From the IMG/VR virus record IMGVR_UViG_3300045988_158900: a stretch of 37,614 nt of DNA; one strand, 5' to 3'. The translations under genes and the position numbers were made by a program. Within the stretch, counting starts at the first letter, position 1, and each line of letters opens with the position of its first letter. The stretch comes from a virus. This document shows positions 326 through 36,630 of the stretch, in pieces. The notes beneath the pieces are model-generated. The model was not told the origin of the DNA. It ran no database searches and worked only from the letters and a program-made list of their open reading frames with translations.

Positions 326-354
326 AAACGGGACTCCTTTCTCTCATAATATAA

Positions 355-393
355 ACAAAAAAAATGGGTGTGAGAAATAATCTTCTCACACCC
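355..393 (-). terminator. Intrinsic terminator of the upstream minus-strand gene
   Basis: Hairpin GGGTGTGAGAA..TTCTCACACCC at 366-393, followed on the minus strand by a T-run (plus-strand A-run 355-364). Confidence 0.6.
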
Positions 394-440
394 ATACACT
401 TGATTATTCCTATTTAATTTTAAAAAATTAAATAGTTTAA

Positions 441-965: not shown

Positions 966-1008
966 TTCAAAACCCTCCTTTTACACTTATTTATATTATA
1001 CTAAAAAT

Positions 1009-2043: not shown

Positions 2044-2061
2044 TTAGAATTTCTTCTCCTA

Positions 2062-2100
2062 AAATAAAAAAAATGGGAAGAGGAATAAATCCTCTCCCCA
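2062..2100 (-). terminator. Intrinsic terminator after the major-tail-protein gene
   Basis: Minus-strand hairpin GGGGAGAGGATTTATTCCTCTTCCC followed by a T8 run. Confidence 0.6.
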
Positions 2101-2118
2101 TAAAAATTTTTAATTAAA

Positions 2119-3195: not shown

Positions 3196-3222
3196 AGTGT
3201 TATTTCCTCCTTGTATTTTTAA

Positions 3223-3951
3223 TTAATGAATGTTTTTCATCCAATTATCCGGGGTCCCTTCAGGTTTACCGCCAGCTAAACGCTAGCGCACATCCAGGTC
3301 CCAAGCAGTATATAGCGTATATCTCTCCATTAAATCATATAATTGGAACATTGTCAGATTTGTCAAATCCTATAATGACATTGAACCTAATCCAATAGTC
3401 AAGATTGACATATACTAACTAAAAACACTTACATTCGAATTACCGTTTTGAGCGGCAACTCGCTGTCTCCCTCGCATTAGCTTTTGAGCAATCTCACGAG
3501 CCTTATCGTTGGCAGGATTGAAAGCCTACTAATCCATCGGGCCATTATGCATACAAAAGATTAAACGCAACACTTCTTGTAATGCTTCAAAATTATTTCC
3601 ATCTACAATAATAGGAGGAACACCTTCCTTTATAAATAATAATGAGTTTGGTGTCACATTTATTTTATATAATGGAAATAATAAATTTAAAACATTTAAA
3701 ATGTTAGCTTTTTTATCCTTTGTTTCATCCTATAACATTATCGTCATAAATATCTAAAAATTATTGATACTGTCTAGAATAGTTTTGTCCTCTATAAACA
3801 TTGTTTTATGCAAACAGAGGGTCTATGCTCCAATAAAAAAATCAGATTCCCCAATAAATGAAATTTCTTTTATCCTTGGTTGATGAGCGACTAAATTACA
3901 TTCAGGAATCAACATATCAGTTCCGCAAATTAAATTTAAGCGGTAATCCAT
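3223..3951 (-). CDS. Head-tail joining/neck region protein, about 242 aa, with about 8 in-frame TAG (including a TAG-TAG pair)
   Basis: Hand translation from the ATG overlapping the upstream TAA (TAATGG at 3951) down to TAA at 3223 is protein-like only with TAG read as sense. Confidence 0.4.
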
Positions 3952-4553
3952 TATTTACTAATATAGTCCTTAAATTCTTTAATAAATTGTTCCTCTTTAA
4001 TTTTGCCGCTATTTTTATCAGGATAAGTTGGCATATATTTTTCATCTTCACCGCCATGAACAGTGCGATACATCAAACATAACCCAGCAAATTCATCGGT
4101 TAAAACAATCTAAGTAGCACCCATAAATTCCAAATAACCAATGCCAGTTAATTTTTTCAAATTAAACATTGAATCAATTTCTCCAGCAATTTTATATGGG
4201 CGTAATGCATAATCTCTTAAATTCCATTGGTCAAAATGACATACAATATGAAATTGAATAGTGTTATCTCTAAACTCTGGATTTTCACTGGGAGTAAAAT
4301 TATCAAAATTAATTAATATATAATTTAAAACAGAACCATCAACATATAATTTAGGCACTATTTTAATATTAGTTCCTAGTAAACTTAAAGACTAATCTTC
4401 AGTAAGATTAGGCTTTTCCATAGCATCACTAGTAGTATAATATAATAATTTTTTTAAACGATTATTTTTTAATATTTCATTAACAATAATCCCAGTATCT
4501 TTCTCCATAGATAGAAAACTTGATTTTGGAATATGATATCCATCTATTCTCAT
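3951..4553 (-). CDS. Hypothetical neck/tail-terminator region protein, 200 aa, with 2 in-frame TAG
   Basis: RBS AAAAGGAG precedes ATG at 4553. Track ORF 4110..4358 is an internal fragment in the same frame. Stop is TAA at 3951. Confidence 0.5.
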
Positions 4554-4575
4554 GTTTTCAATCTCCTTTTACTCA

Positions 4576-5730
4576 TTAGAACAATGATTCTACTACTATA
4601 GTTTTTCGGCTAGTCCCATATACTAAATCAAACTAACCACTATAAGTAGAGTCCCATTTAAGTTTAATTGTTGAAAATCCTTTATCATTAGTCCCTTCAC
4701 TAATAATTCGAACAGGGACATCATTGCCTTCAATTTTCCAAGTTCCTCGAACATTTTTAATATTTAAATTAAAATCATATTCTTTTTTAGGCTTAATAAA
4801 GGTTTCACCAACTATATTTAAAATTTTATTATTATCTTTGTTATTATCTATAATTTTACGTTTTAATATTGGATCTGGTATTTTAAATACATCAGCTAAT
4901 CCTGTATCTCGGTCATCTGTAAATTCATTAGCATAATATTCAACAGCGTTTACTTCAATAACGCCAGTCATACTAATATTATTTACAGCTTCAACTCTCC
5001 AACAGGTATCATAAACTGAACCATCTTCCGGCCAAATATAAAACTTCTAATAACGTTTAAAAAATTTCAAAGTTTTTTCATTTTTAGGAATTAATAAATT
5101 TAAAGAATAATTTGGATTATCTATACTAATAGTATGTTTTTGAATATAATCAATTTTAGTTTCTACTGGACCTCGGTTAGCCACATAAACTACATTTAAT
5201 TCATCATCCATCATAAATGGAATTTGATAAGTACATCTACGAACGTCTCCACGGAAATAAGCTAATTCATCTAAATCCTATAGATAAATTAACCAATAAG
5301 TTCCAGTATTACACCATTCAAATACATCTCCACAATTAAATTTATGTTCAAATCCAATTGAAATAACTTTATCATCATAATCCTATTTTAATTTATTAGG
5401 ATTCATTAATGCTCGAACAGGAGGTAAAATATTTTTTTCTTTTTTAGTTTCTACCTCTGTAGCCGCACATTTACGCACCCAAGCTGCCTAATAAGAATAT
5501 TTAGTAGCTTGGTCTAACGAATGTCGTTTATCTTTGATCATTCGCTACTGTTGGGCAAAACCACCCGCACTCATTAATCTTTTGGCCATATCTAAACTAC
5601 CATCAACTGAATCTGGCTAAGGAATTTTTATACTTGTATCACCTAAACGGGCCCCTACGAGATTTACACTTTTATTAGTATTTAAACCATAAGGCAATAA
5701 TTTTTCCATTTTTTCTGGACGCTTTGGCAT
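4576..5730 (-). CDS. Hypothetical structural protein, about 384 aa, with about 8 in-frame TAG
   Basis: ATG at 5730 overlaps the upstream TAA by 1 nt. Track ORF 4633..4971 is an internal fragment in the same frame. Stop is TAA at 4576. Confidence 0.5.
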
Positions 5731-5990
5731 TACTTTTTAATCTCCTATAATAAACTAATGCATTCGAATACAGTTTTTCTATAAATTGAAAACTCAATAT
5801 CATTTAAAACATTTAGTCCTTCTAATTTACTAAGCAACTATAAAAATCGCGGGTCCTAAATAAAAATTTCATTTAAGCCCGCAATTTCAATAATAACTGT
5901 ATTTAATTGTTTATCCCAATCTTCTTCATTTTCTCTCATAGGGATTAATTTCCACAGTTGATTAGTTAGTCTTACTATATTTTTCTCCAT
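5730..5990 (-). CDS. Small head-tail connector-like protein, 86 aa, with 3 in-frame TAG
   Basis: ATG at 5990. Continuous protein-like translation down to TAA at 5730 if TAG is read as sense. Confidence 0.4.
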
Positions 5991-6018
5991 GACTTCATCA
6001 GAAATATCTGTATGGTAT

Positions 6019-6606
6019 TTAGTTATCATAAGGATAATTCTTATAATGAAATACGCCCCAATTGGATTCGTATTTCCCTTCTACTAATTTACGACGTTTA
6101 TATAAACGTTGCATATGAAATGATTGTCTCTAACATTCACTTAATAAAGACATCAATTTTTGTAAATGATTAGCCTATGAAGTCATTTTAAAATCTGAAC
6201 CACTATATTTCATACGAGTGTGTTCAATAGAAGTGACTTGGCGTTGTACCCAATTCACCATCATCAATATAGCTAAAATATTAATTTCCTCCGGTGTTAA
6301 TTCAGCTCCAAAAGATGAATGTTCTACCATTACACGAGGAGGGCGGATTTCTGATTCTTCATCTTTTTCATCTTCCCACAAAAGACCAATTACAAAATCA
6401 TCTTCTAATATTTCATTTTCATATTTAATTTCCTAATCAATAGTATAGTCATAAATATCAAATCTAGGAAATTCAAATTCAGGTAAAATATTTAGAAGTA
6501 TTGCACGTAAATCTTTAATTGTATCTTCTGGAGTTAATTCAATATAAAGGTCATCAGTAATTTTCCCAAGGAAGCGATTATAAATATCAGTGAATTTAGT
6601 TCCCAT
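6019..6606 (-). CDS. Hypothetical acidic protein, 195 aa, with 4 in-frame TAG
   Basis: RBS GGAGG precedes ATG at 6606. Track ORF 6175..6381 is an internal fragment in the same frame. Stop is TAA at 6019. Confidence 0.5.
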
Positions 6607-6627
6607 GATACGCCTCCTATTTATTTA

Positions 6628-7215
6628 TTATTCAGCAGATTTAGTTTCAGTTTGCTTTACTACTTTGTAAGCATTTTCAGATGTACGACGTCCTGCGGGA
6701 GCAGATTCTGTAACACGTCTTTTAGCTGGTTTATCTGCGATAGTTTCCTTTTTATCATCTTCTTTACTAGCGCGGTCATTTTCAATAGCCTTATCTACGT
6801 CAAAACCAGTTTTAGCTTTTAGAGCTTCACGCTTAGCCATATCAGTAATGGGTAATTGAACAGACATAGTTTTAATCAAATCAATAACTCCAATAGGAGC
6901 AAAATCAAGAGCATCTAAAAATGCATCAATAGAACCACTAAGAATTAAATCACGCACTTGCTCTTCTGACATATTATATTCAGGCTCACGATGGACATTT
7001 AAATCATCAGTAACTTCATTTTCCATAATCTGTAAGAAATTAGCAATTAACTCACGACCGCCAGGTTGGTAAGTCAATTTTTCTAGCTCCCCAAATGGAA
7101 TGCGCTTCACCTCACCGGGCGCCCATTCGCGTCTCAAATTACTCTCAGGAATTCTATATACAACAACACTAGTACTTCTATTTTTTACATTAAACATATC
7201 TTCAGAACGAATCAT
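6628..7215 (-). CDS. Hypothetical head-associated protein, 195 aa
   Basis: Complete track ORF. RBS AAAGGAGATAATAA-ATG. It lies directly downstream of the capsid gene. Confidence 0.55.
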   Translation of the reverse strand: MIRSEDMFNVKNRSTSVVVYRIPESNLRREWAPGEVKRIPFGELEKLTYQPGGRELIANFLQIMENEVTDDLNVHREPEYNMSEEQVRDLILSGSIDAFLDALDFAPIGVIDLIKTMSVQLPITDMAKREALKAKTGFDVDKAIENDRASKEDDKKETIADKPAKRRVTESAPAGRRTSENAYKVVKQTETKSAE

Positions 7216-7236
7216 TTTATTATCTCCTTTTTCTCT

Positions 7237-7275
7237 AAAAAAAATAAGGGGAGAGGGAGTAAATCCCTTCTCCCC
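7237..7275 (-). terminator. Intrinsic terminator after the capsid gene
   Basis: Minus-strand hairpin GGGGAGAAGGGATTTACTCCCTCTCCCC followed by a T8 run. Confidence 0.6.
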
Positions 7276-7303
7276 TTAAATGAAATCTATATTAAGGTTT
7301 AAA

Positions 7304-8410
7304 TCAAATTTGTCCACTTAGACGTCCATCATAGGTAACAACCTTACCAGTTACACCATCATAGTTCCAAGTATACATCTGACCCATTAATGAAGTATCA
7401 ACATAAGAGCAAATGTTGTTAGCCAACATACAACCAACGCCGACCTTCTTATAAACCTGAATCTCACGAGAACGATCGTAATTGTTGAATTCATCAACAA
7501 TAGTTCCACCCTCGAAAGCAATCTTTACAGGCTTGCCATCAACACCAGTAGGAATAATCCAAGCGTAGCCAGGATCAATAACCTTACGAGTATTACTTTC
7601 ATCTTCGAAGCCCTGCTCTAAAATAACAACCTTGGTTCCCTTATAGGTAGCCAAACGGCCAGTATTCCACAACTCAGTCTTCATAGCTTCAGTATAACGC
7701 CAAGCTTCATTAGGAATCATACGAACAGCAAATTCATAAGTACAATAAATAGTAGGAGTACCATAAGCAGAAGCAATAGTAATCAAACGATCCATAGCAC
7801 CTTCATCAAAACCTGCTGCAGCAACACGGTTAGCAGGAGGTAGCTGATTGATAGAAGACTTCAAAGCCAAAGCAACTTCCTTGTAAATCAGTTCATCCAT
7901 ACCATCCATAATAATCTTGATAACTTCAGCAAAATCAACACGACCATCTAAGAACTCTTCGAAGCCGATTTGAGCAGCTCCACCGATAGCAGAGGTACGA
8001 ACCTCGAAGCTCTCGCTCTCAGCAGGTCCCAGCTTGAAGACTTCATAGATACCAGCCAGTCCAACACGAGTCACAAACTGCTTAGCACGTGCGCGTGTAT
8101 TCAGAGGACGACGGAAAATGGGCTTATCACCCTGAGCAAACTGCTTAACTTCAGCAAACTGCTCATAAGATTGAGAAACCTTCTTAGGAAGAACTTCATC
8201 CAAAGTCTCCTCAATCATTGAGAAAATTAAATTTTTATTTTCACGATATAGAGCATTAGTACCAGCTAGCTCATTCATCTCATTACGTAAAGTATCGTTC
8301 AAAGCCTCATAAGAAAGGTTCTGACCATTATAACTGTAAGCCACAGGAGAAGAAGGAACAGCCTTAGCAACAGTCTTCATTAAAGCAACTAAATTGTTTC
8401 TATCTAACAT
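7304..8410 (-). CDS. Major capsid protein candidate, 368 aa
   Basis: Complete track ORF with RBS GAAAGGAGAGAAGAATA-ATG. Size, position after the scaffold/decoration genes and the following strong terminator fit a major capsid protein. No motif-level proof. Confidence 0.45.
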   Translation of the reverse strand: MLDRNNLVALMKTVAKAVPSSPVAYSYNGQNLSYEALNDTLRNEMNELAGTNALYRENKNLIFSMIEETLDEVLPKKVSQSYEQFAEVKQFAQGDKPIFRRPLNTRARAKQFVTRVGLAGIYEVFKLGPAESESFEVRTSAIGGAAQIGFEEFLDGRVDFAEVIKIIMDGMDELIYKEVALALKSSINQLPPANRVAAAGFDEGAMDRLITIASAYGTPTIYCTYEFAVRMIPNEAWRYTEAMKTELWNTGRLATYKGTKVVILEQGFEDESNTRKVIDPGYAWIIPTGVDGKPVKIAFEGGTIVDEFNNYDRSREIQVYKKVGVGCMLANNICSYVDTSLMGQMYTWNYDGVTGKVVTYDGRLSGQI

Positions 8411-8427
8411 TATTCTTCTCTCCTTTC

Positions 8428-9363
8428 TTACGCAATACGTAGAATCTTAGCGCCACGTTGTCCATCAGGCATAGTATATACCTTAACAACCTGCCACTTC
8501 ATATCCTGACTCTCATCTTTTACAAGAATTCCGTCAGCAGCTGCTGGAGCTAAAATATCACCAACAGAAACACTATCTTCATTAATCATATTAGTAGTAT
8601 AATGATCACCAACATTAGTCTTGAAGACACGAGGAACCATTGCAGTACCTGGAGTCATGCGCTTCTCATGATAAACACCAAGCTTCTTATATGGATCATT
8701 AGTCCAAGTCAGCTCTTCGTAAATGTCAGCAACATCAGTTAGAACTTTATCATAAGCATACTTTACAGGCACAGGAGTCTTAGTCTGATTGGTCTTAGGA
8801 TCAATCTCATACTCTACACCATTATAAGTAAACTTATTGTCCTTAACATCATAAACTTCGCCAGCGATGGTAACAGTCTTTAGACCCTGGTCTAAGGCAA
8901 CAGTGTGCTCAAGCACCTTGTGATCAGCACCAGTTTCATCAACACCATTCCAGAAACGTCCACCATATTCAACCTCAGTATGCTCCCAATCATATGGAGA
9001 ATAAATACGAGCCTGATAGTCGTCCTTTAGCATAGCAAATTCGCAATCCCACTGCTTAGTTCCATCAGGATGATCACGATATAACTTAATCTCATTATAA
9101 ACTAGCATCCACTCACCCTTGCCAGTAAAATTCACTTCACCAATACCATTGGCATTAGCAGCATAATCATACTTGACAAACTGGCCGTTTTCAAGAATAT
9201 TAATATCCTTGTTAGCAGGCAACTGAGCATAAATTTGAGCGGTTCTTTGTGCAGACAGGTGATTTGGCTCAACCTGACCATAACCAAACTCAACATACTT
9301 AGCCTGTGACTTAGGTGGATTTTTACCAACGCCTAAATGAGAATTTAAAAAATCCTTAAACAT
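8428..9363 (-). CDS. Capsid-associated structural protein (decoration protein or alternative capsid candidate), 311 aa
   Basis: Complete track ORF with RBS AAGGAGGACATACTTAA-ATG, immediately downstream of the scaffold-like gene. Confidence 0.35.
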   Translation of the reverse strand: MFKDFLNSHLGVGKNPPKSQAKYVEFGYGQVEPNHLSAQRTAQIYAQLPANKDINILENGQFVKYDYAANANGIGEVNFTGKGEWMLVYNEIKLYRDHPDGTKQWDCEFAMLKDDYQARIYSPYDWEHTEVEYGGRFWNGVDETGADHKVLEHTVALDQGLKTVTIAGEVYDVKDNKFTYNGVEYEIDPKTNQTKTPVPVKYAYDKVLTDVADIYEELTWTNDPYKKLGVYHEKRMTPGTAMVPRVFKTNVGDHYTTNMINEDSVSVGDILAPAAADGILVKDESQDMKWQVVKVYTMPDGQRGAKILRIA

Positions 9364-9381
9364 TTAAGTATGTCCTCCTTA

Positions 9382-10971
9382 TTAGTTTTTATTGGCTGAT
9401 TCTAGAACAGCCTTGACCCAAGCTGGCATCCCAGCATCTCTGTCATCATCTAAATTGCTTAAATTATAGGTAGTTGGGCCTTTATCATTATTATCATCAT
9501 CAAGGTTAAAATTAACCTTGTTGCGAACACAAATAACAGAAAGCTTTGCTTCAATATCATCAACAGAATACTTATCAATGTTATCAATAACATCTTTCTT
9601 ATCATCATCAGACAGCATATAGAATGATTGAATCATAGCTTCTTTATCCTTACGTTCAATACTATTTTTAAACTCAGTTAAAGAAGTATTAGTTTCACTT
9701 AGAGTCTTATTTTCCGCCTCTAGCAAACTAAATTTATTCTGCAACTCTTCATACTCTGCCTTTAAGCTAACATATTCTTCAATTTCATCCAAGGAATACT
9801 TTTTCTTTTTCTTTTCATCCTTATCATCTTTTGAAGGATCGTCATCTTCATTTTCTGACTTTTGACCATTATTTTTAGAAGAACCATCATCTTTTTTGTT
9901 CTCAGGGTCGCCAAAATTATCGCCCTTATCATCGTTTGACTTTTTATTTTCTTCTTCTTCTTGCTTTTTCTTAAATTTGGTTTCATATGCTTCAACCGCA
10001 TCTAAAGCAAACTGAGGCTCTGCTGCTGGAGTATAAGATTTAGTCACTTCAATTAAACCTTCACCAGGAACAAGACCATCAGAATCACTCAAAGAGAAGT
10101 TTAAACGATAATATTTCATATCTCCGCGGTCTTGAAGAATAGCAAATTTTTGACTATTATCTTCAAAAACACCATCAATACGATATTTAGAGCAATAATT
10201 GTTAGAGCCATCAGGGAAAGCTTTATTTACATATTCCCATAAAGCACTCCATAGAGAATCTCCGATTTCTACGGCATATCTATTAAACACTTTTGCTCCT
10301 CCTTCTTTTAATAATTCTTTTAGTTCATTCATCATTGAGTATAGTTCATTTTTAAAACTATCATCAAATGAAAGAGAAAACTTTGTAATAGAGGAGCCTT
10401 CGAAGCAAGGTTCACACTCTTCTCCTAAAATACAAAGTTTAGAAATAATTGCTTCATTAATAATGAAAAACTACGGCTTTCCATTATTATCTTTCGTCCA
10501 AGTTCCATCTAAAGTGCCTTCATCGAGCTCCATAGAATGATTATTGCCTTGCTCAATGATGCGCTTACATTCTGGATATTGGCCGGTCCATAAATATCCT
10601 TCAGTCATAAGATATTCATGTTCATTAACGCCATCATCTAAAAATTTCTAAAACCAAACCTTGGCACCTAAATCTACAAAACCGTAAGGTTTAGTAGTGT
10701 CTTTCATTTCAAACTTTCCGTTTGAAATATCAATAATTCTATTGTGTTCCTCAAAATCTCCATTAGATTCATTGTAAAAACCAACAATAGGACTGCCAGG
10801 GAGACTATTAGCCATCTCCCTTGCAGTTTCTTTAGAAATAATGCTTCGATTGCGATTTGGTTCATCCCCAACGTAGCAAACTTTAATTTGGCATTTAGAA
10901 ATCAAAGGATTAATAGGAGTTACATTAATAAATTCACAAGGCGTTTCAAGTTTAATACTTTGATGCTTCAT
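9382..10971 (-). CDS. Prohead protease/scaffold-like fusion protein, about 529 aa, with 2 in-frame TAG
   Basis: Track ORFs 10648..10971 and 9382..10335 share a frame. Hand translation of 10336-10647 shows only TAG codons (at 10648 and 10471) and no TAA or TGA. The C-terminal 200 aa is a K/E/D-rich coiled-coil typical of scaffold proteins. The N-terminal domain is possibly a protease; this is a weak call. Confidence 0.45.
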
Positions 10972-11093
10972 GATTTACCTCCTTAATTCATTGACTCTTT
11001 ATTTTTTATGGTTTTTTCACTTTTCTAATCATCAGCCTTTTCAGGTCGCCCAGACTATTTTGTTTCAGTAGTCTGTTTTGTAGTAGTCTATTG

Positions 11094-12644
11094 ATTACTA
11101 CTTCCTGAATTATTTTGTGTTTTATTCTAATTGTTTGAACCTTTATTACCCAAAACATCTTGACTACTCATAGTAGAAGACATTAATGGTGGGATCATAA
11201 TTTCAGTTAATTTCAACACATCATTTTCAAATACCGCAGTATTTAAAATAAAACTCTAAGAGTGACCAAGAGCAATTTGAGGTAGCATCTTAGAATAACC
11301 AAGTTGCGTCTGTTCTTTATATAATTTTGACATTTCTTTATAATTATATTGTGTAGTTTCAAGCATATAAAATTTAAAACTATATTTCTTATTGTTCGCA
11401 ACTTTCATCTTTACTATTCTATCAAAAAAAATGTTAAATTGCAACAACAAGTTTCTAACAGTTGATTCATCATTAAGAATAGACTTCTCTAATGATAAAT
11501 TACCATCAGTATTAAATAGATTTTGAGAAATGCCTAAATTATTATAAACAGTACGTTCAACTTTTGCTAAATCATCTGTAGTAGTTGTAGTATTTTTATC
11601 TGATAAATCAATAGATTGAACATCAGTAAATGTTGTTAAAACATCAACACCAATAGCTCTTGATAACATAGCAACAGCATTATTATGTATGTCACGAGAT
11701 TCATCAATATCAAATATTAAATCGCCATTTTTATCCATCGGAAGTTTTTGAACAATAATTTTTAACAACTTCTACATTTGTTTTCTGCGGTCTAAATCTT
11801 GAGCAGCATCTAAATCCATAAGAGCAGGGATAGAATTAATAAATGGTGGGGCATCACTACCATTAAAATTAAATTTCACACTTAATTCTGGAGATAGTAA
11901 ATACCAACTTCCACTATAATCTCCCTTAATATCAGGAAGTAATTTTCCTTTCTTATATAAAATATATCCGCGCTAAAATTCTTCGGGGAATAATTTTAAT
12001 ACGCGCATACGATAATTAGGATCTGGAAACTAATCAAAAAACCGCATATCAAACTCAATTGCTGGCATACCAGCCACAAAGTATCTAGAACGGCAATAAC
12101 TAGCAGGTAATTCTTGTAACATTAAGCTATTTGCAGATTGTACTATATATCCATAATAACAACCATTTTTCATAATACTTTGAGCAATATCACCGCAGAT
12201 TTTTTTAATATAAGTATTATCTAAATAATTTAATAATTTTGAAAAATCTTTTAAAACTTTTTCATCTTTTACTGTATCGTCTAAAATCTCTGGAGCAACA
12301 TACCAATCATATCTATACAAATAAGCAAAATAATTACATACTCGCTCATAAATACCGCTAATATCATAAAATAAATTAGAAATTCTACGCATTTCAACAA
12401 TATCACGATTTATCATAGCTCGTAATACATCATTTTTAGTGACCATGCGACATGGTCCACGACGATTAGGATATAGCCGAGCAAATGACCCTAAATCTAA
12501 TACAGCATCATCTAATGTTTGAACCCCAACTTTTATTTTACGATATTCTGTTGGATCAGCAGTTCGATAATCACTTGTTCCATTGCTGATATTAAATCCT
12601 TTGGAGTGGATGATTTCCTAACGTGATAATTCTTTAGTATCCAA
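11094..12644 (-). CDS. Portal protein candidate, about 516 aa, with at least 3 in-frame TAG and a TTG start
   Basis: RBS AAGGAGGTGGAATT-TTG at 12644. Track ORFs 12030..12446 and 11256..11768 are in-frame fragments. The frame continues through TAG codons to TAA at 11094. Position between terminase and scaffold. Confidence 0.45.
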
Positions 12645-12656
12645 AATTCCACCTCC

Positions 12657-13013
12657 TTAATATCCAGCTAATTGCATTATATAATCATATGTAATAAGAT
12701 TTTCATCTGTATAAGGAATCTCTATTAATTTAAAATCGTGTAAAGCACAAAAACGTCGTTTTTGATTATCATTATATTGTTGTTGATATAAACCTTTTTT
12801 ACCACCAAATTTCGCGCTAGGCTCATAGTGCTATTTACCCTAATATTCAATAATAAAATCAATTCTACCATCATCATCAAAAACGACAAAATCGAAACGT
12901 AAGGGTCTGCCACTTGGTGCCTTCAAATCTGGGAAAATATACTCCATCTTAAACGGTAATTCAGCTTGTCGCAAAATCTCTTCAATTTTAATTTCGCCTC
13001 TAGACGCTCTCAT
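12657..13013 (-). CDS. Small PD-(D/E)xK endonuclease (DUF559/Vsr-like), 118 aa, with 2 in-frame TAG
   Basis: Translation MRASRGEIKIEEILRQAELPFKMEYIFPDLKAPSGRPLRFDFVVFDDDGRIDFIIEYQGKQHY... carries the RFDF..(8-10)..IEYxGxQHY signature of DUF559/Vsr-type endonucleases. It is inserted between terminase and portal like a free-standing homing-type nuclease. Confidence 0.5.
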
Positions 13014-13023
13014 AATTACCTCC

Positions 13024-14757
13024 TCAATTCAAGAAACACCAATCTTTAGCATTAAACTTTTTACGTTTCTTCTTTTTATCTTCTTCTAATTTTAAATAAT
13101 ATAGTCCATATTCAAAAGCAGAAAATTTATCTTTTCGGATACTTTTATTTGCTTGCTTCAGGATAATATTTACTCCTTCAGTTTCTTCACGCAAATTCAT
13201 CATTTCTTCTTTTAATATGGAAGTTAATGTAAATGGTTTTAATTCTTCTGCCCTCTATTCTGGAGTCATAGTTTGACCTTTCTTTTTAGCAAGAAGTTTA
13301 TTTTTTGCTACGCGTTCATCAATTAAAAATTTTACTTTTCCAGAAGCAAGTTGTGATTTAGCAATCGCATGGGCCTCTGTATTAAGCGGCGCATTAGCTT
13401 TTATAATATACATAGCATCTAATACTGTATTAGATGTTTTATATTTTTTATAAAATAAATCATCATCATTAACAACACCAAAATCAGGGAAAATTTCATT
13501 AGTTTCAGGATCAATCTATGTCTTAACCATATAATCAATTAAACCAATTCCCAAACCATTACCATCAATTACAATTCTATCAGCGTTATATTTATAATAT
13601 AATTTTTTTAATTTAATAGTTTGGTCTTCAAAGTGTTCATCAGATAATGTATATATATTCACTAGACTTTTAATCGAGCCACCTTGTGATTGTGGAGTTA
13701 CTTTAAATATACAAATAACTGAATCGCATCCTTTACGACCAACGTCGACAGCAAGTACATAAGATGCTAATTTTGAATTACGCCCAGACGCTTCATATTC
13801 AGGCTAATTTAATATTCTATTTCTGTCAAATATTTCAGCATTAAAAAATGCATCTTCTACAGTGCCAGACCATTTACTTTCATACTCTCGGTCAAATGAA
13901 CTTTCATTGAACGTTCCATCCATTTTTAAGTCTTTAATAAAATTCGCATCTAATAATTTCATTAAAACAGGAATACGATAAGTACCACCCATAATAATAG
14001 ATTGCTAAGGTTTAACAATCTCCCAAACTAATAATTGGATTAATTTATCATAGGGGAAAGTATTTTTATATCCAGCAGTAGTAATATAAATTTGAGATTT
14101 ATTAAGAGTTTCATCAGGTTGAGTAGTACCATCCATACACATACGAGAAATATTCATTGTAGGAATAATAACTTGTGATAAAATATCACCATCAACACCA
14201 ACGCACTCTTCAATTAAACCACCATGGCGACGTTTACCACGAGAAGACTCTCTTGCGGCAATATTATCAAAATATGAACCATTTTTAAATACATATTTAA
14301 CATAATCTTTGCCTTCAAGTGTCTAACCACGGTGCCAATCTATTTCTTTCTAAAATGCAGGAATAAGAGTACAAATTTCTTGAACTTTTTCTTTTACAAT
14401 TCCAGCCGCTTGCTCTTTACCACCAGAAGTAATAAATAATTTACATCTAGGATATAGAATCGCACGACACATTAAGACCATTATTGATAAAAAAGATTTT
14501 GAATAAGCACGAGGGAATACAGCATAAATATATTTATGACGCATCGCAGCGCGCAAAAAAATTCTCTAATAAAAATAGAGTTTAAAATGTTGAGGGCCAC
14601 CATCAGGTCCTGCCATAAAGTCGATAAACATATCTGGATATTCTCTCCAAAAGGCTATGTACTATCTTGCTTCTGGTATAATCGCACGAAGACGGTCCTC
14701 TGAAATTCCAATCTTTTTACGCTTCTAAGATAAATCAAGTAAATCCTATAAAGCCAT
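13024..14757 (-). CDS. terL: Terminase large subunit, about 577 aa, with about 10 in-frame TAG
   Basis: ATG at 14757 follows the upstream stop. Track fragments 14350..14556 and 13804..13992 are in the same frame. Hand translation shows a P-loop-like segment (YAVFPRAYSKSF) and RNaseH-like nuclease acidic segments (VLAVDVGRKGCD, IVIDGNGLGIG). The 3-prime end (TGA near 13024) is uncertain by a few nt. Confidence 0.75.
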
Positions 14758-14758
14758 A

Positions 14759-15955
14759 TTATCCTTCTAAATTCCTTAAAGTCTGAGCATCTATTTCAGA
14801 CTCTTCCTCAAGGAAATCATTATATTCAATTAAATCTTCATCTTTAAGATGATCGATTTCTTCCATCGTTAAATCTTCTTCAATATCTTGGTCTTCTTCT
14901 TTATTTTCTTCTTCTTGCATTTTCTTAATAGCCCCTTCAATGAGATTACCTAGATTCATCTCTTCGGTGACTAATGTATGTGTATAGTTCTTTAAATCTT
15001 GTAGAGTTTCGTCAACTTTATCTTTTGGACCTTCTGTATAATACCGAGGAATAAATCCTTCAGTCTCACACATGGCCACTAATTCTCCAATAGAATCAAA
15101 TGCTTCTCCTGTATCTGCTTTATTTTGAGCGGCGGTGAAATTACCTGATTTCATTAGACTATCATAAACCTTGCTCATCTTTTGGAAACCTTCGATATCA
15201 CCAATATCGATCAACTAGTTTGCTTTTAAGGATGTCTTACAAATTAATTTTAATGTATCAATATGACCAGCGCCGCGGATATCATAAGAACTCATCATTT
15301 CTTCATAGAGTTGCTCTAGTTTAACCCATTCTTCGGGTTTATATGCTTTACCCCACTTCATACGAAGATATAAAATATCTTCTTCTGTTAAATCGAGGCC
15401 ATCTGCTGGGTCATGCTCAATACCATTCTATTGATCAAAATAATCATCACCATCTCTAAAACGTTCAGGCAATTCAGGAGTATAAGGTTTTAATTCTTCT
15501 TCTGGAATAGCGACAGTAGATTTAGCAATAGCTGTTGCTATTTGCTAAGCATCATATCCTTGACGTTTCATAGTTTGCTCTAATTTATTATTAGCCACTT
15601 CCTATAAAAACTCAGAATCTTTCCATCGATAATCTTTATATTGTTTAAGTTTCATTTTGGACAAATATCTACCTAAAATACTCATACCAGTTAATTTAGA
15701 TTTATCTTGTCCATATTTTACCATTAATTTACTCCACTCATCTGGAACATAAGGTACATCAATTTCTTGTAGAATCCACATATAAGTTTCTGGATTCCAG
15801 TTATCTACAAGCATTGTAATACATTTTTTACATTGAGGGAGTTTTCCATCATTTGGATATTTTTCTAAGTTATTAGATGTATAAAACTGGTCAGCGCCCA
15901 TAGTTCTATTACATCGTTCACAATAATATACTTTTTTATCATTATCTACAGTCAT
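14759..15955 (-). CDS. Zinc-ribbon plus acidic C-terminal protein, 398 aa, with 4 in-frame TAG (terminase small subunit or DNA-packaging accessory candidate)
   Basis: Track ORFs 15602..15955 (CxxC...CxxC) and 14759..15214 (acidic) share a frame and are joined by a TAG-only stretch. RBS AGGAGGAAAATT-ATG. It lies immediately upstream of terL. Confidence 0.45.
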
Positions 15956-15997
15956 AATTTTCCTCCTTATATCTATCCAATAACAGGCATCTCAAAA

Positions 15998-17062
15998 TTA
16001 TAACTGTTTGCCCTTGTTTTTGGCATTGCGGCATTTTTTACAAATACTGTAATAACCATCTTTGCTGGTTTTATTTTTGCTAAAATATTTATTATGTGCT
16101 AATTTAATTTGCCCACAACGGCTACATTTTTTATATTTACCTTTTGCTTTATGTAAATAATAATCATATAGGTATTGGTCTTCAGCCGCAGAGGCGATTA
16201 GTTTTGGAATTTTATTACGCCATAAACTAGAAATATATTCTAAACTATGAGTAATATTAAATTCCTTTTGAATTTTCTTTTGAATGTCTATATTCTATAA
16301 TCCATCAATTTTATATTCAACTATTCTATCATATAAGGGATAATCTTTAAGAGCAATGGTACATAAATTATCGAAATCTTCCATAATATACCATAAATCT
16401 CTTTCAAAATCTCCCCAACTATCTTGCTTTAAACGAGAATAATTACATAAAATTGCAGAACATACTCTAGGGTCTAATAGTGAAACGCCATCCGGGATTG
16501 GATAACCATCATCATCAAAAATGCAAGTCGTGTCCTCTAATGGAATAAAATTTCTTGAACGAGTAATTTTAGTCATAACAATTGGACGACGAACTGCATT
16601 TTTAATAACATACTAATCTTTACGCATTTCAATAATAGCACGTTTAATTATAAATGCCTCGCGTCCTTCGCTAACTCGTAATTTGGCTTCCCAAGTAGTA
16701 ATGGCGTCTCTTAACTATTTTAAATGAGGTATTTCTTCTATATCTTTTTTAGTAATTGTAATTTTAGGCTAAAATATTGTATTTTTATTTTCAGTAATTA
16801 AATTATAAATTCCATCTTCGCCATTCTCAAATTGGGAAACAAGACCTTCAAAAGATGTTTCACGTTTATTAACTGTTGCCATACGATTATCAGTTAATAA
16901 TTTACGCTCCTTTTTCTCTTGTTTCTCCATACAAAGAATGATATAGTCCCCTAATATTTCTAAATATCGAGGAGAGGGGTCTGGGGTTTCCTCTAATATT
17001 TTCTTGACTAATTCATTTCTTTCTTCTGGAGTTTGTAAGGAATAGTCTAATTTTATCATCAT
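15998..17062 (-). CDS. First gene of the late operon, 354 aa with a C-terminal CxxC..CxxC zinc ribbon, about 4 in-frame TAG
   Basis: Track ORFs 16769..17062 and 16295..16576 share a frame. The TAG-only linker was translated by hand. Stop is TAA at 15998. Function unknown (regulator or packaging candidate). Confidence 0.45.
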
Positions 17063-17087
17063 TACCTCCAGATTTTTTTACGTCTTC

Positions 17088-17116: not shown

Positions 17117-17171
17117 ATTTTAATAAATGCATTTAAAAAATTTTTAGACAATACTATTAATTGGGAAAAAT

Positions 17172-18757: not shown

Positions 18758-18901
18758 ATGCCTAAGTATAAAAGTTTTGGAAATGCCCTCGCTGCTAAAA
18801 TGCAGAAAAAGGCTAATTATTATGCTACTAAAGCAGTTCATCAAATTGTATGGGGTGAAAACCCTAAACGTGGTCGCCCTAAAAAGGAGGATAAAAAATG
18901 A
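18758..18901 (+). CDS. Small basic protein, 47 aa
   Basis: ATG at 18758, 2 nt after the AbrB-like stop. K/R-rich C-terminus. Stop TGA overlaps the next ATG (ATGA). Confidence 0.4.
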   Translation: MPKYKSFGNALAAKMQKKANYYATKAVHQIVWGENPKRGRPKKEDKK

Positions 18902-19355: not shown

Positions 19356-19451
19356 ATGTCTATCATCTACAAAATCGTGCGCTTCATCGTTGCGGTCGCC
19401 GCTGTCGCGGGCATTGGCATCTTGATGTGCCTCATCTGCCTCCCTCACTGA
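19356..19451 (+). CDS. 31-aa hydrophobic peptide (MSIIYKIVRFIVAVAAVAGIGILMCLICLPH)
   Basis: Promoter ATAGACA-N17-TGGTATAAT and RBS AAAGGAGGAAT lie upstream. Terminator follows immediately downstream. Confidence 0.5.
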   Translation: MSIIYKIVRFIVAVAAVAGIGILMCLICLPH

Positions 19452-19463
19452 GGGAGGTTTTTT
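19438..19463 (+). terminator. Intrinsic terminator
   Basis: Hairpin CCTCCCTCACTGAGGGAGG followed by TTTTTT. Confidence 0.7.
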
Positions 19464-19474
19464 GTTGCCCTAAG

Positions 19475-20266
19475 ATTGTTAAAAATTTAACGATGTAGCA
19501 AGATTGTTAAAAGATTAACAATGTAGCGAGATTGTTAAATTTTTAACAATCACTCAACCAAGAGAGGACAAGGACACACACGGCATAGTGGACAAGGAGA
19601 GCGAGCCAATGAGCGAGCGACCAACAGACAAAGAGAACAACACACAACACAACACAATGATAGATACATTGTTAATGTATTAACAATGTAGTATAGTAGT
19701 ATGGTATGGTAGTAGATGGGGCAGGGGTGGGCTATGGGTAGTGGGTAGGGAGAGAGAGTAGACCGACAATAAGAGATGCGGACGCGCTTCCCACCGGTCG
19801 GCTCACCGGGAACCGCGCACCACAAATCTAATGTAGGTATTCTATTTCTCTTTTGAGTTCATCATCGTTAACGGCCCTAATCGCCCAAGAATAAGCCCTC
19901 GCACAATTGCCAAACAATACAGCGGCGCAGGCGCTGAACAGCGCGCATCCCGCAACACACAGTCCTCACAGAGGGGCGAGCAAGATTGTTAAAAATTTAA
20001 CAATGTGAGAGCCAAGAGCAAGAGAGTAAGGAGTGCGCTTGCACAGGTAGCAAGGAGGACACGCACGGCACTGTTGATACATTCGCTGACCGAGCAAGAT
20101 TGTTAAAAAATTCACAATGTGTGGATGTAGTGAATGTGCTGTTTAATTGTTAAAAATTTCACATTCGCTGTTGGATGCCGAACACGGTCGCCGCGCTCCT
20201 AACTTCACCACGTTAAAGTGATAAAGAAAAAAAATCGCAAATCCGATTGTTAAAATAATCACAATC
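19475..20266. promoter_or_regulatory. Array of 8 palindromic operator-like sites, consensus ATTGTTAAA-N2-TTTAACAAT, with a ninth copy at 21108-21126
   Basis: Sites at 19475-19494, 19503-19522, 19530-19551 (perfect 10-bp arms), 19666-19689 (ACATTGTTAAT-GT-ATTAACAATGT), 19985-20004, 20099-20118, 20145-20165 and 20246-20266. Several are preceded by GAGCAAG. The whole 19453-20290 region is non-coding. Confidence 0.7.
19718..19750 (+). other. G-quadruplex-forming motif within a C-depleted G/T/A tract
   Basis: Six runs of G3-4 within 33 nt (ATGGGGCAGGGGTGGGCTATGGGTAGTGGGTAGGG). The flanking 19685-19761 stretch has only 2 C. The preceding 19555-19657 stretch has only about 4 T. Confidence 0.5.
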
Positions 20267-20306
20267 TCTGTCCCGAAAATAAATAGGTTATTTTTGAAAA
20301 AACCTC

Positions 20307-20335
20307 TTGACAAATTGCCCTATGTGTGCTACAAT
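20307..20335 (+). promoter_or_regulatory. Consensus promoter (TTGACA-N17-TGcTACAAT)
   Basis: Exact TTGACA at 20307, 17-nt spacer, extended -10. Confidence 0.6.
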
Positions 20336-21094: not shown

Positions 21095-21138
21095 GCGTCC
21101 TATTTTTTTGCGGTTGGATTGTTAAAACTTTAACGAGC

Positions 21139-21203
21139 ATCGTCGCGCTCATCAGGCACGTGGCGCCCCGAAATATTATACCACAACAGCCCACCAGTTG
21201 TCA
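21139..21203. repeat. Half copy (right arm plus hairpin) of the palindromic promoter element, carrying a leftward consensus promoter
   Basis: Minus strand reads CTTGACA-ACTGGTGGGCTGTTGTGG-TATAAT, facing a GC hairpin. Confidence 0.5.
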
Positions 21204-21324
21204 AGAGAAAAATGCGAAAATTTTGCACAAAATTTGCTATCCCGATTTGTGTAGTTTGCCAATAGACAAAATGAAATAAGCGTGTTATAATGAATACAAC
21301 AAAAACAACAAAGGAGATACACAC

Positions 21325-21633
21325 ATGATTAACATTCGTTCTATCCGCAAGCTGGGCAATAATGACGGGCTGACCCTCAAAATGGGCAAAAAGGTAAACT
21401 ATAAATCCGGCTGGCAGGTTGCCACAGAGGGCATCGAGTGTAAGACCGCACAAGAAGCCATTGACGCGGTGAGAGACTACGGCGGCAATTGTGGCGTGTG
21501 GTTCAGCGAGGGCATTTATTACATCGACAAAAGCAAGCGCGTGGCGACAAAGCGCGAGGCTATGGAAATCGGCAAAGCGTGCAATCAAATTTCCGTGCTG
21601 AAATGGGCGACTATGACGCTTGCCTACTGTTAA
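21325..21633 (+). CDS. Hypothetical protein, 102 aa
   Basis: Track ORF. Promoter ATAGACA-N17-TGTTATAAT and RBS AAAGGAGA upstream. Terminator follows at 21638-21670. Confidence 0.6.
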   Translation: MINIRSIRKLGNNDGLTLKMGKKVNYKSGWQVATEGIECKTAQEAIDAVRDYGGNCGVWFSEGIYYIDKSKRVATKREAMEIGKACNQISVLKWATMTLAYC

Positions 21634-29974: not shown

Positions 29975-30355
29975 ATGGCTAACACTAACACCACCACCCG
30001 CAAGCCCACCAAACGCGACAATTTCACCGCCCTGCTCAAGCTGTCCGAGGTCAAGGCTGACCCCAAGCTGGTGGAGTTCATCACCCACGAAATCGACCTG
30101 CTCGACCGCAAGAACACCGTGGACAAGAAGCCCACCAAGACCCAGCAGGAGAATGAGGCCATCAAGACCACTGTCCTGTCCGCTATGGAGAGCAACCGGC
30201 TGTATTCCATCAGCGAGATGCTCAAAGAGTTCCCCGTCTGCAAGGACATGAGCAATCAGAAGCTGTCCTCTCTGGTGCGGCAGATGGTGCTGGATAAGCA
30301 GGTGGAGCGCGTGGAGGACAAGCGCAAGGCGTTCTTCCGCAAGGTGAGCGCGTAA
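29975..30355 (+). CDS. Cassette protein A1, 126 aa (paralog of A2)
   Basis: RBS GAAAGGAATTGATACT-ATG. Conserved with A2: TKRD.FTALLK, ELLDRKNTVDKKPT.TQ, SNQK.SSLVRQMVLD.Q..R.EDKRKA.F. Confidence 0.6.
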   Translation: MANTNTTTRKPTKRDNFTALLKLSEVKADPKLVEFITHEIDLLDRKNTVDKKPTKTQQENEAIKTTVLSAMESNRLYSISEMLKEFPVCKDMSNQKLSSLVRQMVLDKQVERVEDKRKAFFRKVSA

Positions 30356-30406
30356 ACCTCAAAGGGTGGGGAGCAATCCCCACCCTAACCCTGAAAGGAG
30401 TACCGC

Positions 30407-30763
30407 ATGACTGACCGAGTTGCCGACCTCATGCGAAAGCTGGATTGTACCGAAGCCGAAGCCAAGGACATTATTGTTCAAGATGCTATCATCGACAAGG
30501 GCGGCAATCCATTTCCGCTGACCGAGGAACAGGAAAAGGCAAGCAAGAAAGCGCGGGGAGTAGGACGCCAGCCGACCGCATACAAGTTCGCGCCAAAAGA
30601 AAGAAAGGCTAATCTCACAAAGCAGGGCATTATCACCCTACTGACCGAGACACTGACCACATACGGCGCGACTGACCTGAACGTGAGCAACGTGGAGCGC
30701 GAATTTTTATTCACGCTTGATGGAACAAAATACAAGGTTGTGCTGTCGTGTCCGCGCAAGTGA
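30407..30763 (+). CDS. Cassette protein B1, 118 aa (paralog of B2)
   Basis: RBS GAAAGGAG. Conserved with B2: PTAYKF..(K/R)ERKAN.TK..II..L. Terminators flank the gene. Confidence 0.6.
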   Translation: MTDRVADLMRKLDCTEAEAKDIIVQDAIIDKGGNPFPLTEEQEKASKKARGVGRQPTAYKFAPKERKANLTKQGIITLLTETLTTYGATDLNVSNVEREFLFTLDGTKYKVVLSCPRK

Positions 30764-32466: not shown

Positions 32467-32919
32467 ATGACTGCTATCACTTCCACCGCTAACCGCCGTA
32501 TGACCAAGCGGGACTACTTCACCGCCCTCAAAACCTTTGCCGAGGTGGGCGAGTTCAAGTTCCCCATTTCCCAGCGTATCGGCACTTCCGAGGACTTCGA
32601 GACTGTCTATGTGGACATTTCTCCCGCAGAGATAGCGGAGTTCGCCAAGCATGAGCTGGAACTGCTCGACCGCAAGAACACCGTGGACAAGAAGCCGACC
32701 GCCACGCAGGTGGCAAACGAGGGTATCAAGGCTGACATCAAAGCGTTTCTGGACGCCCACAAGGGCGAGAAGTACACCGTGTCTGCTCTGATGAAGTCTG
32801 TTCCCACTATCGCCGATGCGTCCAATCAGAAGGTTTCTTCTCTGGTGCGTCAGATGGTGCTGGACGGTCAGGCAGACCGTATCGAGGATAAGCGCAAGGC
32901 GTATTTCACCGCCAAGTAA
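32467..32919 (+). CDS. Cassette protein A2, 150 aa (paralog of A1)
   Basis: RBS AAAGGGTTGATACT-ATG, identical spacing to A1 and the NT5C gene. Terminator GGGGGGGAGATATTCTCCCCCC follows. Confidence 0.6.
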   Translation: MTAITSTANRRMTKRDYFTALKTFAEVGEFKFPISQRIGTSEDFETVYVDISPAEIAEFAKHELELLDRKNTVDKKPTATQVANEGIKADIKAFLDAHKGEKYTVSALMKSVPTIADASNQKVSSLVRQMVLDGQADRIEDKRKAYFTAK

Positions 32920-32977
32920 GGTATGGGGGGGAGATATTCTCCCCCCTATCCCCTAAAATCTGAAAAGGCGGTGTTTT

Positions 32978-33376
32978 ATGGCTGAAATCTCCAAAACCGA
33001 ATGGCTGAAAAACGCTATGGCGAAAATGGGCTGGACTGCCGATGAAGCGGAAGCCGTGTGGAACTCTGACCGAGAAATCGACAAGGGCAAGGCACAGGAT
33101 TTTGACCTGTCGAAAGAACAGCTCAAAATTGCCCAAAAATTCGCCAAGACTGGCACTCGCAAGACCCCCACCGCATACAAATTCACTACGAGGGAACGCA
33201 AGGCAAATCCCACGAAAGCGTCCATTATCGCTGAACTCGCAACATTTTTGACCGAAAACAGCGAAAATGCCTGCGAAAATGTGGAAATTACCAACAAAGA
33301 GCGTCAAATTGCGTTCAAAATCGGTGAAAATTCCTATGAACTGACTCTTGTGCAGAAGCGCAAGCCGAAAAGTTGA
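32978..33376 (+). CDS. Cassette protein B2, 132 aa (paralog of B1)
   Basis: Track ORF. Conserved PTAYKFTTRERKANPTKASIIAEL with B1. Confidence 0.55.
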   Translation: MAEISKTEWLKNAMAKMGWTADEAEAVWNSDREIDKGKAQDFDLSKEQLKIAQKFAKTGTRKTPTAYKFTTRERKANPTKASIIAELATFLTENSENACENVEITNKERQIAFKIGENSYELTLVQKRKPKS

Positions 33377-35595: not shown

Positions 35596-35677
35596 GGAAA
35601 GGGTGTCTCGAAAAATTCAGAAGATGACGATAACGATAAAATTGAGTGATAAATTGATACCGAGCGGGGGGCACCAA

Positions 35678-35791
35678 ACTCCCATCATTTTCTTTCACTC
35701 CCATCATTTTCTTTCACTCCCATCATTTTCTTTCACTCCCATCATTTTCTTTCACTCCCATCATTTTCTTTCACTCCCATCATTTTCTTTC
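35678..35791. repeat. Perfect tandem repeat, 19 bp x 6 (ACTCCCATCATTTTCTTTC), at the island right boundary
   Basis: Six identical head-to-tail units with no spacers. Confidence 0.85.
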
Positions 35792-36019
35792 AAAGTTATT
35801 ATCATTATCAATTTCTAACATTTTGTTATTAAGAGGAAACATTATAAGGTTCCATTATTCGTTGTTTACAATTATATTCATCAAACCCCGCTAATAGGTT
35901 TATTTAATTATGATTTAGTTTTTGTAAAGGTAAAACAATAATCAAACCTCAGATTCAAAAAAACGTTATAAGTCAAAATGCATTAAAAAAATGGAGTGGT
36001 TTATCGCCACTCCATTTTT

Positions 36020-36448: not shown

Positions 36449-36630
36449 AATATCCGGTCTCAAGCGCCGACGGGCTTAGGGAGGTTTTTGTGGCATAATT
36501 AATAGAATTACTAATATTTACACTATTATCATTCTAATAATATCCGGTCTCAAGCGCCGACGGGCTTAGGGAGGTTTTTGTGGCATAATTAATAGAATTA
36601 CTAATATTTACATAATTATCATTCTAATAA
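36449..36630. repeat. Tandem duplication, about 90 bp x 2 (2 mismatches), covering the 3-prime end of the adjacent gene
   Basis: TATCCGGTCTCAAGCGCCGACGGGCTTAGGGAGGTTTTTGTGGCATAATTAATAGAATTACTAATATTTACA(C/T)(T/A)ATTATCATTCTAATAA occurs twice head-to-tail. Confidence 0.8.

Follow-up and report, generated by a model that had tools for sequence, protein, structure and literature searches.

What is the role of a noncoding region in which eight palindromes of one family are found within less than 1 kb of phage DNA? The region, here termed the hub, is present in IMG/VR virus record IMGVR_UViG_3300045988_158900, of which a stretch of 37,614 nucleotides (the window) was analysed; this 37.6 kb was read of a genome that is probably ~100-200 kb long. 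A preliminary description made from the sequence alone offered three readings of the palindromes, namely a replication origin, a partition (parS-like) site, or a master-repressor operator array. The last of these is favored by our analysis, because the palindromes, or boxes, appear to be conserved sites for a dimeric protein, are tied to promoters in related phages, and have the sequence of a known repressor operator, that of Rex. Judged by sequence, the hub looks like a transcription-control or decoy array that is tied to the redox state of the host, rather than like an origin or a centromere.

Palindromic boxes and the Rex operator

The boxes were located by scanning the whole window, and 100 shuffles for comparison, for the pattern ATTGTTAAANNTTTAACAAT with at most three mismatches. 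Ten matches were found, compared with 0.17 expected, and none of the shuffles reached ten. Eight of the matches start within the hub (at 19475, 19503, 19531, 19668, 19985, 20099, 20146 and 20246, together spanning 19475-20265), and a ninth starts at 21118. The nine palindromes of the preliminary description, which had placed the last at 21108, are confirmed. The tenth match, at 17160, is weak and overlaps a -35 box, and it is probably not a member of the box family. An 18-bp core, TTGTTAANNNNTTAACAA (TTGTTAA-N4-TTAACAA), occurs seven times in the window with at most one mismatch, whereas 0.03 occurrences are expected. Four of the nine boxes match this core perfectly, and the other five have one or two mismatches, three of them only one.

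The first three boxes, at 19475-19494 (ATTGTTAAAAATTTAACGAT), 19503-19522 (ATTGTTAAAAGATTAACAAT) and 19531-19550 (ATTGTTAAATTTTTAACAAT), are arranged in tandem with a period of 28 bp (2.8 copies, 86% matches). Box 1 has one mismatch to the core; boxes 2 and 3 fit it perfectly, as do box 4 (19668-19687; ATTGTTAATGTATTAACAAT) and box 5 (19985-20004; ATTGTTAAAAATTTAACAAT). Two weak, divergent promoter-like sites, each with 9 of 12 matches, have their hexamers on either side of box 4 (19669-19697 on the plus strand and 19686-19657 on the minus strand). One half-site of box 6 (20099-20118; ATTGTTAAAAAATTCACAAT) is TTCACAA, the general Rex half-site. Box 7 (20146-20165; ATTGTTAAAAATTTCACATT) has two mismatches. 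Box 8 (20246-20265; ATTGTTAAAATAATCACAAT) lies upstream of the first promoter of the adjoining island of early genes, its center ~87 bp from where transcription is estimated to start. Box 9 (21118-21137; ATTGTTAAAACTTTAACGAG) lies downstream of an antisense promoter at 21204-21175, ~41 bp from its estimated start site. None of the nine boxes is assigned a strand. Many copies of the box have a single altered half-site with no compensating change in the other. Because these variants are uncompensated, a role as an RNA hairpin is unlikely, and the boxes seem to behave as protein-binding DNA.

Rex is a winged-helix repressor by which clostridial bacteria sense NADH/NAD+. TTGTTAA-N4-TTAACAA is the consensus Rex operator of Clostridiaceae (PMC5367854; PMC9600882, quoted from Ravcheev et al. 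2012). The core found in the window is identical to this consensus. For Rex_2471 of Acetivibrio thermocellus, the motif obtained by DNA affinity purification sequencing (DAP-seq) and validated by electrophoretic mobility shift assay agrees with the Clostridiaceae consensus (PMC8457756). The A and T that flank the boxes also agree with the Rex motif of Thermoanaerobacter ethanolicus, ATTGTTANNNNNNTAACAAT (PMC5886521). A Rex regulon with the same motif is predicted in Caproicibacterium (Oscillospiraceae), where it comprises 27 sites (PMC9600882), and A. thermocellus Rex yields 128 DAP-seq peaks (PMC8457756). Rex is on DNA when NADH is low, and comes off when NADH rises (PMC8457756).

The variation among boxes also bears on this match. 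Of the seven specified positions in a half-site, the fifth is one of the more variable. When 171 sites from the window and 10 further loci are compared, TTGTGAA, the Rex half-site of most other bacteria, ranks second in frequency (25 of 342 half-sites). One substitution among the close relatives of the window changes TTGTTAA to TTGTGAA, and two members of the clade, L206 and L231, have boxes of the TTGTGAA type. Box variation therefore seems to track the degeneracy of Rex sites. A chromosomal site with the same extended sequence is located 51 bp upstream of a gene for a short-chain dehydrogenase, and another adjoins a glyceraldehyde-3-phosphate dehydrogenase gene.

The boxes thus resemble the sites at which Rex acts in Clostridia and Thermoanaerobacterales (ROP or Rex boxes) in their 18-bp TTGTTAA-N4-TTAACAA core, their flanking A and T and their tolerance of TTGTGAA/TTCACAA, and chromosomal sites of this sequence are found near a dehydrogenase gene and a glycolysis gene. 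Their setting is different, however: chromosomal sites are single or paired and overlie the promoters of redox genes, whereas here eight occur within 0.8 kb of a phage genome without a strong promoter. A full-text literature search returned no relevant report of a phage carrying Rex operators, and, as far as that search goes, the proposed link between a phage array and the Rex operator appears to be new.

Box arrays in related phages

The best IMG/VR relatives are 92-96% identical to the window and are found on contigs of ~95-198 kb. In a comparison of eight distinct close relatives, variation is seen in 12 of 160 columns within boxes and in 197 of 739 within spacers (Fisher p = 2.5e-8); box columns therefore vary ~3.5 times less often than spacer columns, and 6 of the 12 box changes fall in the unspecified central N4. 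By this comparison, the boxes are under purifying selection, as predicted sites for a dimeric protein.

Box arrays are present in dozens of related phage contigs of 90-200 kb that are linked to Clostridia. At least 34 further IMG/VR loci have at least three boxes, and 17 of the 20 box-richest loci that were tested share proteins with the window or its relatives. Among relatives, arrays range from 2 to ~24 boxes; the box totals are 21 in L035 and 32 in L049. Relative L014 shares one detectable protein with the window, and it has a hub of 12 boxes that includes motif B, an oriented 22-bp repeat that occurs twice in the hub of the window and is conserved in L014 (five copies). There are 18 boxes in L014 in all. 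The type of box is retained down to 35-60% protein identity, and in many distant relatives a distance of 0.4-4.6 kb separates the hub from the beginning of the late operon. The preliminary description had named a recent tandem amplification as an origin of the palindromes that would undermine its proposal. Because the array architecture is common to very distant relatives, the hub appears to be old, and a recent amplification is ruled out.

In L226 (IMGVR_UViG_3300045988_163471), positions 18-700 comprise ~24 tandem 29-bp units, each with a box of the TATGTGAA-N4-TTCACAA type. This segment has 26% GC, and no protein similarity to the clade of the window was detectable.

L034 and L035 have 17 boxes that are centered 64-65 bp upstream of the estimated start sites of early promoters, often with a second box ~30 bp further upstream. 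A different arrangement is seen in L007, L014 and L017 and at box 9 of the window, where consensus promoters directed against or away from the early genes are followed 30-170 bp downstream by boxes. The unit composed of the antisense promoter and its downstream box is found again in the distant relative L014. Box placement differs by lineage, but in every case it appears operator-like. Because the boxes are tied to promoters at fixed positions in these relatives, they are likely to be operators. The promoter cassettes of L034 and L035 (for example, 16480-16600 in L035) also contain a GCCCGGGCG palindrome, which directly precedes the box in most of them.

No similar DNA was found in cultured phages or plasmids. 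One distant relative (L002/L018) forms a contig in the genome of an isolate, Ruminococcus sp. YE282, and other arrays occur in contigs of metagenome-assembled genomes from Acutalibacteraceae, Bacillota and Clostridia, and in human-gut assemblies. This host range fits a role for Rex, since the relatives are linked to Oscillospiraceae and other Clostridia, in which Rex is described.

Proteins that might bind the array, and alternative roles

The preliminary description suggested a search for a cognate helix-turn-helix (HTH) or ParB-like protein. This search was negative: Pfam and PHROGs revealed no DNA-binding family of the HTH, ribbon-helix-helix, recombinase-like or ParB-like kind among ~30 island proteins of the window, and no obvious regulator adjoins the arrays in 11 relatives, whose translated open reading frames (ORFs) were inspected by eye. 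A Rex protein encoded by the phage was likewise rejected within the sequences searched. A tblastn search using Bacillus subtilis Rex as the query (its sequence checked against PDB 2VT2) found no homologue in the window or in loci L001-L019, and two pattern scans for conserved Rex peptides found no relative of Rex in 2.9 million IMG/VR contigs. Because the phage shows no Rex gene, host Rex is the most likely binder; with no candidate phage protein found, and with boxes that match the Rex operator exactly, it is the best single candidate. Our preferred reading is that host Rex binds the array and either gates early transcription or is itself soaked up, and we would put the chance of this at somewhat below even.

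If so, a low NADH/NAD+ ratio in the host would leave Rex dimers bound to the array, where the early, host-takeover island begins, and to the single box 9, downstream of the antisense promoter. When NADH rises, the dimers would leave the boxes. One possible consequence is that early and antisense transcription at the edge of the island is gated or insulated by the redox state of the host. Another is that replicating phage genomes, with at least nine consensus sites per copy, soak up Rex and so de-repress the host regulon for NADH recycling and fermentation. In that event, the phage sites would compete with the Rex sites of the host (compare those counted in Caproicibacterium and A. thermocellus) once the phage replicates. 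The two consequences are not mutually exclusive. We infer Rex as the binder, and both consequences, from sequence comparisons.

A role in dosage or titration would fit better than classical promoter occlusion, for three reasons: the hub lacks a strong promoter, its boxes depart little from the consensus, and relatives differ widely in how many they have. Of the nine boxes in the window, box 9 is downstream of a consensus start site and box 4 is inside two weak promoter-like sites; the other seven are without a strong promoter.

Several observations weigh against the binding of host Rex. Rex is usually a repressor that occludes promoters, and a box centered at -64, or a hub without promoters, would be an atypical geometry for it. 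Each half-site matches the -35 hexamer TTGACA at five of six positions, and this likeness could contribute to box conservation. The same gene order, without such boxes, is found in L027, L029-L031 and L036. Moreover, in other relatives a second palindrome, RCTTTA-N6-TAAAGY, is present at equivalent intergenic positions, with 31 copies in L032, and L028 has both types. Exchange of operator specificity among relatives is typical of phage-encoded immunity repressors, and a cognate phage regulator could be encoded elsewhere in the genome, beyond the part that was read. Finally, the conserved, oriented motif B and the skewed composition of the spacers are not accounted for by the Rex model.

The RCTTTA-N6-TAAAGY palindromes of L032 (IMGVR_UViG_3300045988_174784) are found at 120-10702, in pairs and triplets within early intergenic regions, and this locus has no Rex-type boxes. 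Copies such as CTTTAGCGCGCTAAAG resemble the KorB operator plus one base.

Alternatively, the boxes may be operators of a repressor that the phage itself encodes, for master control, immunity or early shut-off, and whose specificity coincides with that of the Rex box by chance or through evolved mimicry. On this view, the system would work in the manner of SPbeta SPBRE/MrpR or the L5 stoperators, and the hub would serve as its principal site of nucleation or autoregulation at the switch between early and late transcription. We regard this as almost as likely as the binding of host Rex. In its favor, the presence of other palindromes, or of none, at equivalent positions in relatives looks like heteroimmune diversification, and the relative in the genome of Ruminococcus sp. 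YE282 means that the group may be temperate. The distance of the hub from the late operon in many distant relatives is as expected for a switch region, one operator is repeated in early intergenic regions across the clade (as in L014, L035 and L049), and most of the genome is unseen. SPbeta, moreover, offers a precedent for repeated early intergenic operators that are bound by a phage master repressor (PMC10516654). However, no HTH, ribbon-helix-helix, recombinase-like or ParB-like protein was seen in the window or beside the arrays of the 11 relatives, and a chance match of all 14 specified positions and their spacing to the Rex consensus is unlikely. Immunity specificities evolve quickly and are not usually retained at the protein identities over which this box type persists, and nine boxes for ~40 promoters are too few for global silencing.

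A replication origin, in which the palindromes and motif B serve as initiator sites and divergent transcription at box 4, running into G- and purine-rich flanks, leads to priming by an R-loop or a G-quadruplex (G4), is improbable. Some features would suit an origin: weak promoter-like hexamers flank box 4 on both strands, the plus strand is purine-rich and has clusters of G rightward of that box, and motif B is oriented and has been kept in the distant relative L014. An analysis of GC skew had been proposed as a check. In the 37.6-kb window, to which the analysis applies, the cumulative GC-skew minimum is at ~16.5-17.5 kb, where transcription diverges. This is only 2-3 kb from the hub, but the turning point coincides with the switch in gene orientation and not with the hub. 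In addition, the hub has no separate AT-rich unwinding element, its highest AT content over 40 bp (80%) being the box triplet itself, and a search of the flanking genes found no family of replication initiators, helicases or primases. Some relatives of 92-96% identity lack the G4 motif, and the scattering of boxes over many promoters in relatives such as L035 and L049 is unlike an origin element.

Less probable still is a boundary element, in which a protein-bound array pauses genome injection or blocks read-through between the early island and the late operon. Phage T5 has a repeat-rich region at which injection stops. The hub is at the edge of a host-takeover-like island that contains a 5'-nucleotidase gene and a gene with a T5orf172 domain, and antisense promoters of the island point toward the late operon. 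The proposal is purely analogical, however, and terminators already flank the hub. We consider least probable of all a centromere-like partition site of a phage-plasmid, at which the tandem palindromes would recruit a protein of the ParB, KorB or SopB type for the segregation of an episomal prophage. The tandem palindromes have a period of 28-29 bp, with three copies in the window and ~24 in L226, and such arrays resemble a sopC-type centromere. The second palindrome, found in some relatives, is similar to the KorB operator, and one relative is a contig of an isolate genome. But no ParA- or ParB-like family was detected among the ~30 proteins scanned, the dispersal of boxes over many promoters and intergenic regions in relatives is unlike a single centromere, and the box differs from known parS sites in spacing and half-site.

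Other phages and plasmids provide partial parallels. The stoperators of mycobacteriophage L5 are asymmetric 13-mers that have one orientation relative to transcription and block elongation. Like the boxes, they are many copies of one operator, located downstream of promoters and in intergenic gaps; unlike them, the boxes are palindromic and concentrated in one hub. Phages GIL01 and CTXphi have operators of host LexA in their control regions, and the boxes would similarly place the operators of a host global repressor in a phage control region that reads a physiological signal of the host. The signal would, however, be NADH/NAD+ rather than DNA damage, and the far greater number of sites points to titration in addition to control. 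E. coli datA, F sopC and the KorB operators of RK2 are site clusters for titration or centromere function. They share with the boxes a clustered or dispersed set of palindromic sites whose number matters, but no DnaA, ParB or KorB-type protein or sequence was found here. The SPbeta SPBRE is a 15-bp motif that is bound by MrpR, a phage-encoded protein with a tyrosine-recombinase fold (PMC10516654). As with the boxes, this is a short operator repeated in many early intergenic promoter regions of a large Firmicutes phage (PMC10516654). In contrast, no such gene was seen in the window, and the boxes are symmetric and match the site of a host regulator.

Phages of this clade are abundant, uncultured and stop-codon-recoded, and they are found in gut and rumen. 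Phages read the state of their hosts by way of LexA, quorum signals or peptides of their own. If host Rex binds the boxes, phages of strict anaerobes would have a cheap, gene-free route by which to sense or reset the fermentation of the host. It is conceivable, although we think it unlikely, that the whole clade of large gut and rumen phages of Clostridia plugs into the NADH/NAD+ sensor in this way, both by redox-dependent early and antisense transcription and by a Rex sponge that switches on fermentation genes. Host metabolism would then be taken over without the help of a metabolic gene. If a phage repressor binds instead, the clade would provide many natural variants of operator and repressor specificity, among them one that coincides with that of a host global regulator.

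Composition of the hub and its genomic surroundings

The hub comprises ~830 bp, and no reading frame within it is conserved. On the left it is bounded by an intrinsic terminator of the upstream small-peptide gene (19438-19467, plus strand), which has a 9-bp GC-rich stem followed by a run of T. On the right is the first sigma-A-type promoter of the early island (20307-20335, plus strand; TTGACA-17-TACAAT with TG). Three ORFs overlap the hub, all on the minus strand (19550-19825, 19966-20115 and 20143-20313), and a coding role was rejected because they are crossed by indels of 1, 2 and 8 nucleotides in relatives of 92-96% identity; the earlier view that the region contains no credible ORFs is thereby upheld.

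The spacers between boxes are depleted in one base. This asymmetry is retained in relatives, but the sequence and the identity of the depleted base are not. The tract at 19555-19657 (plus strand) has 3 T in 103 nucleotides, close to the count of about 4 given previously; it is the most T-depleted stretch of the window, the next best having 7 T, and it contains the first copy of motif B (19570-19583). The second copy, at 20055-20068 on the plus strand, is CAAGGAYACRCACGG-N5-GTTG and lies inside a purine-rich tract (20005-20098) that follows box 5, as had been noted. Across much of the hub, the plus strand is 64-66% purine, and G clusters to the right of box 4.

Between boxes 4 and 5, a G/T/A tract at 19688-19764 (plus strand) consists of degenerate (G)nTA repeats. 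The depletion of C reported for this tract of ~77 nucleotides is real, but there are 4 C rather than 2, and the depletion is unusual only for a context of ~45% GC. Within it, 19718-19750 (GGGGCAGGGGTGGGCTATGGGTAGTGGGTAGGG) has the six runs of G3-4 that had been described, and these constitute a canonical G4 motif. The G-rich, C-poor tract is the most indel-prone part of the hub among close relatives. The G4 motif is present in the window and in L006/L024, L021 and L022, but is absent from L020, L023, L025 and L026, all of 92-96% identity, and a functional G-quadruplex was rejected on account of this loss.

Roles at the level of RNA were also examined. A structured RNA was rejected, as folding z-scores of -0.33 and -0.30 for the two strands are no better than shuffles. 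No Rfam family matches the hub at its gathering score, and other matches are at chance level. A CsrA-type or Shine-Dalgarno-like RNA sponge is not supported by the frequency of GGA, which is 12 observed versus 15 expected in the hub of the window, and 11 versus 11 in the leader of L014.

The late genes occupy 1-17077 on the minus strand, and their reading frames are open only when TAG is decoded as an amino acid. Despite 10 in-frame TAGs, the gene for the large terminase (13024-14757) encodes a protein of which 93-95% can be aligned to the terminases of Enterococcus and Geobacillus phages. Genes of the early island have no in-frame TAG, and their stops are TAA (25), TGA (11) and TAG (1). No suppressor tRNA was found in the window. 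The phage is large and TAG-recoded. A portal-like late gene has 9 in-frame TAGs. In contigs from human gut and other ENA sources (L155-L158), late proteins near the hub have precomputed Pfam matches to YonD_N and YonG_N, which are SPbeta families. Kinship of the late genes with SPbeta was considered and set aside, since these matches are known for relatives and the scanned late proteins of the window have no Pfam match.

GC content rises from ~30% to ~46% at ~19.0-35.5 kb, forming an island of 43-51% GC inside a genome of 28-32% GC. This island of 16 kb contains ~40 consensus sigma-A promoters, many with a TG extension, as well as strong ribosome-binding sites, terminators and small ORFan genes, and it looks like an early module for host takeover. 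The hub had been placed at the junction of the late operon and the early island. It is indeed at the left edge of the 46% GC island, but it is ~2.4 kb from the first late gene and so not directly at the junction. The only Pfam or PHROGs matches among the ~30 island proteins are 5'-nucleotidase, HD, a weak T5orf172, and DUF7352.

The antisense promoter at 21175-21204 (minus strand) is a consensus promoter with 12 of 12 matches and TG, and it fires leftward through box 9. Nearby, at 21325-21633 on the plus strand, is a conserved early gene of 102 amino acids, and a box is located within ~0.3-1.5 kb of it in 19 of the 21 loci that carry the gene. Its product has a confident fold that is not like those of DNA-binding proteins, and the gene is missing from many box-bearing loci. 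It is more likely to be a regulated target than the binding protein.

At 18758-18901, an ORF of 47 amino acids encodes a basic protein that is retained in close relatives and ends in KRGRPKK. This AT-hook-like motif could contact the A/T center of the boxes. Within the island, a two-gene cassette is duplicated (29975-30763 and 32467-33376); the C-terminal segment of the first protein of each copy is winged-helix-like by eye, without Pfam support. Promoters of the island are arranged in repeated cassettes (direct-repeat families D1-D11), and the antisense ones include that at 22108-22080 as well as the one beside box 9. At or just past the right edge of the island, a 19-nucleotide unit is repeated seven times in tandem and a 90-nucleotide unit twice (35659-35829 and 36449-36628).

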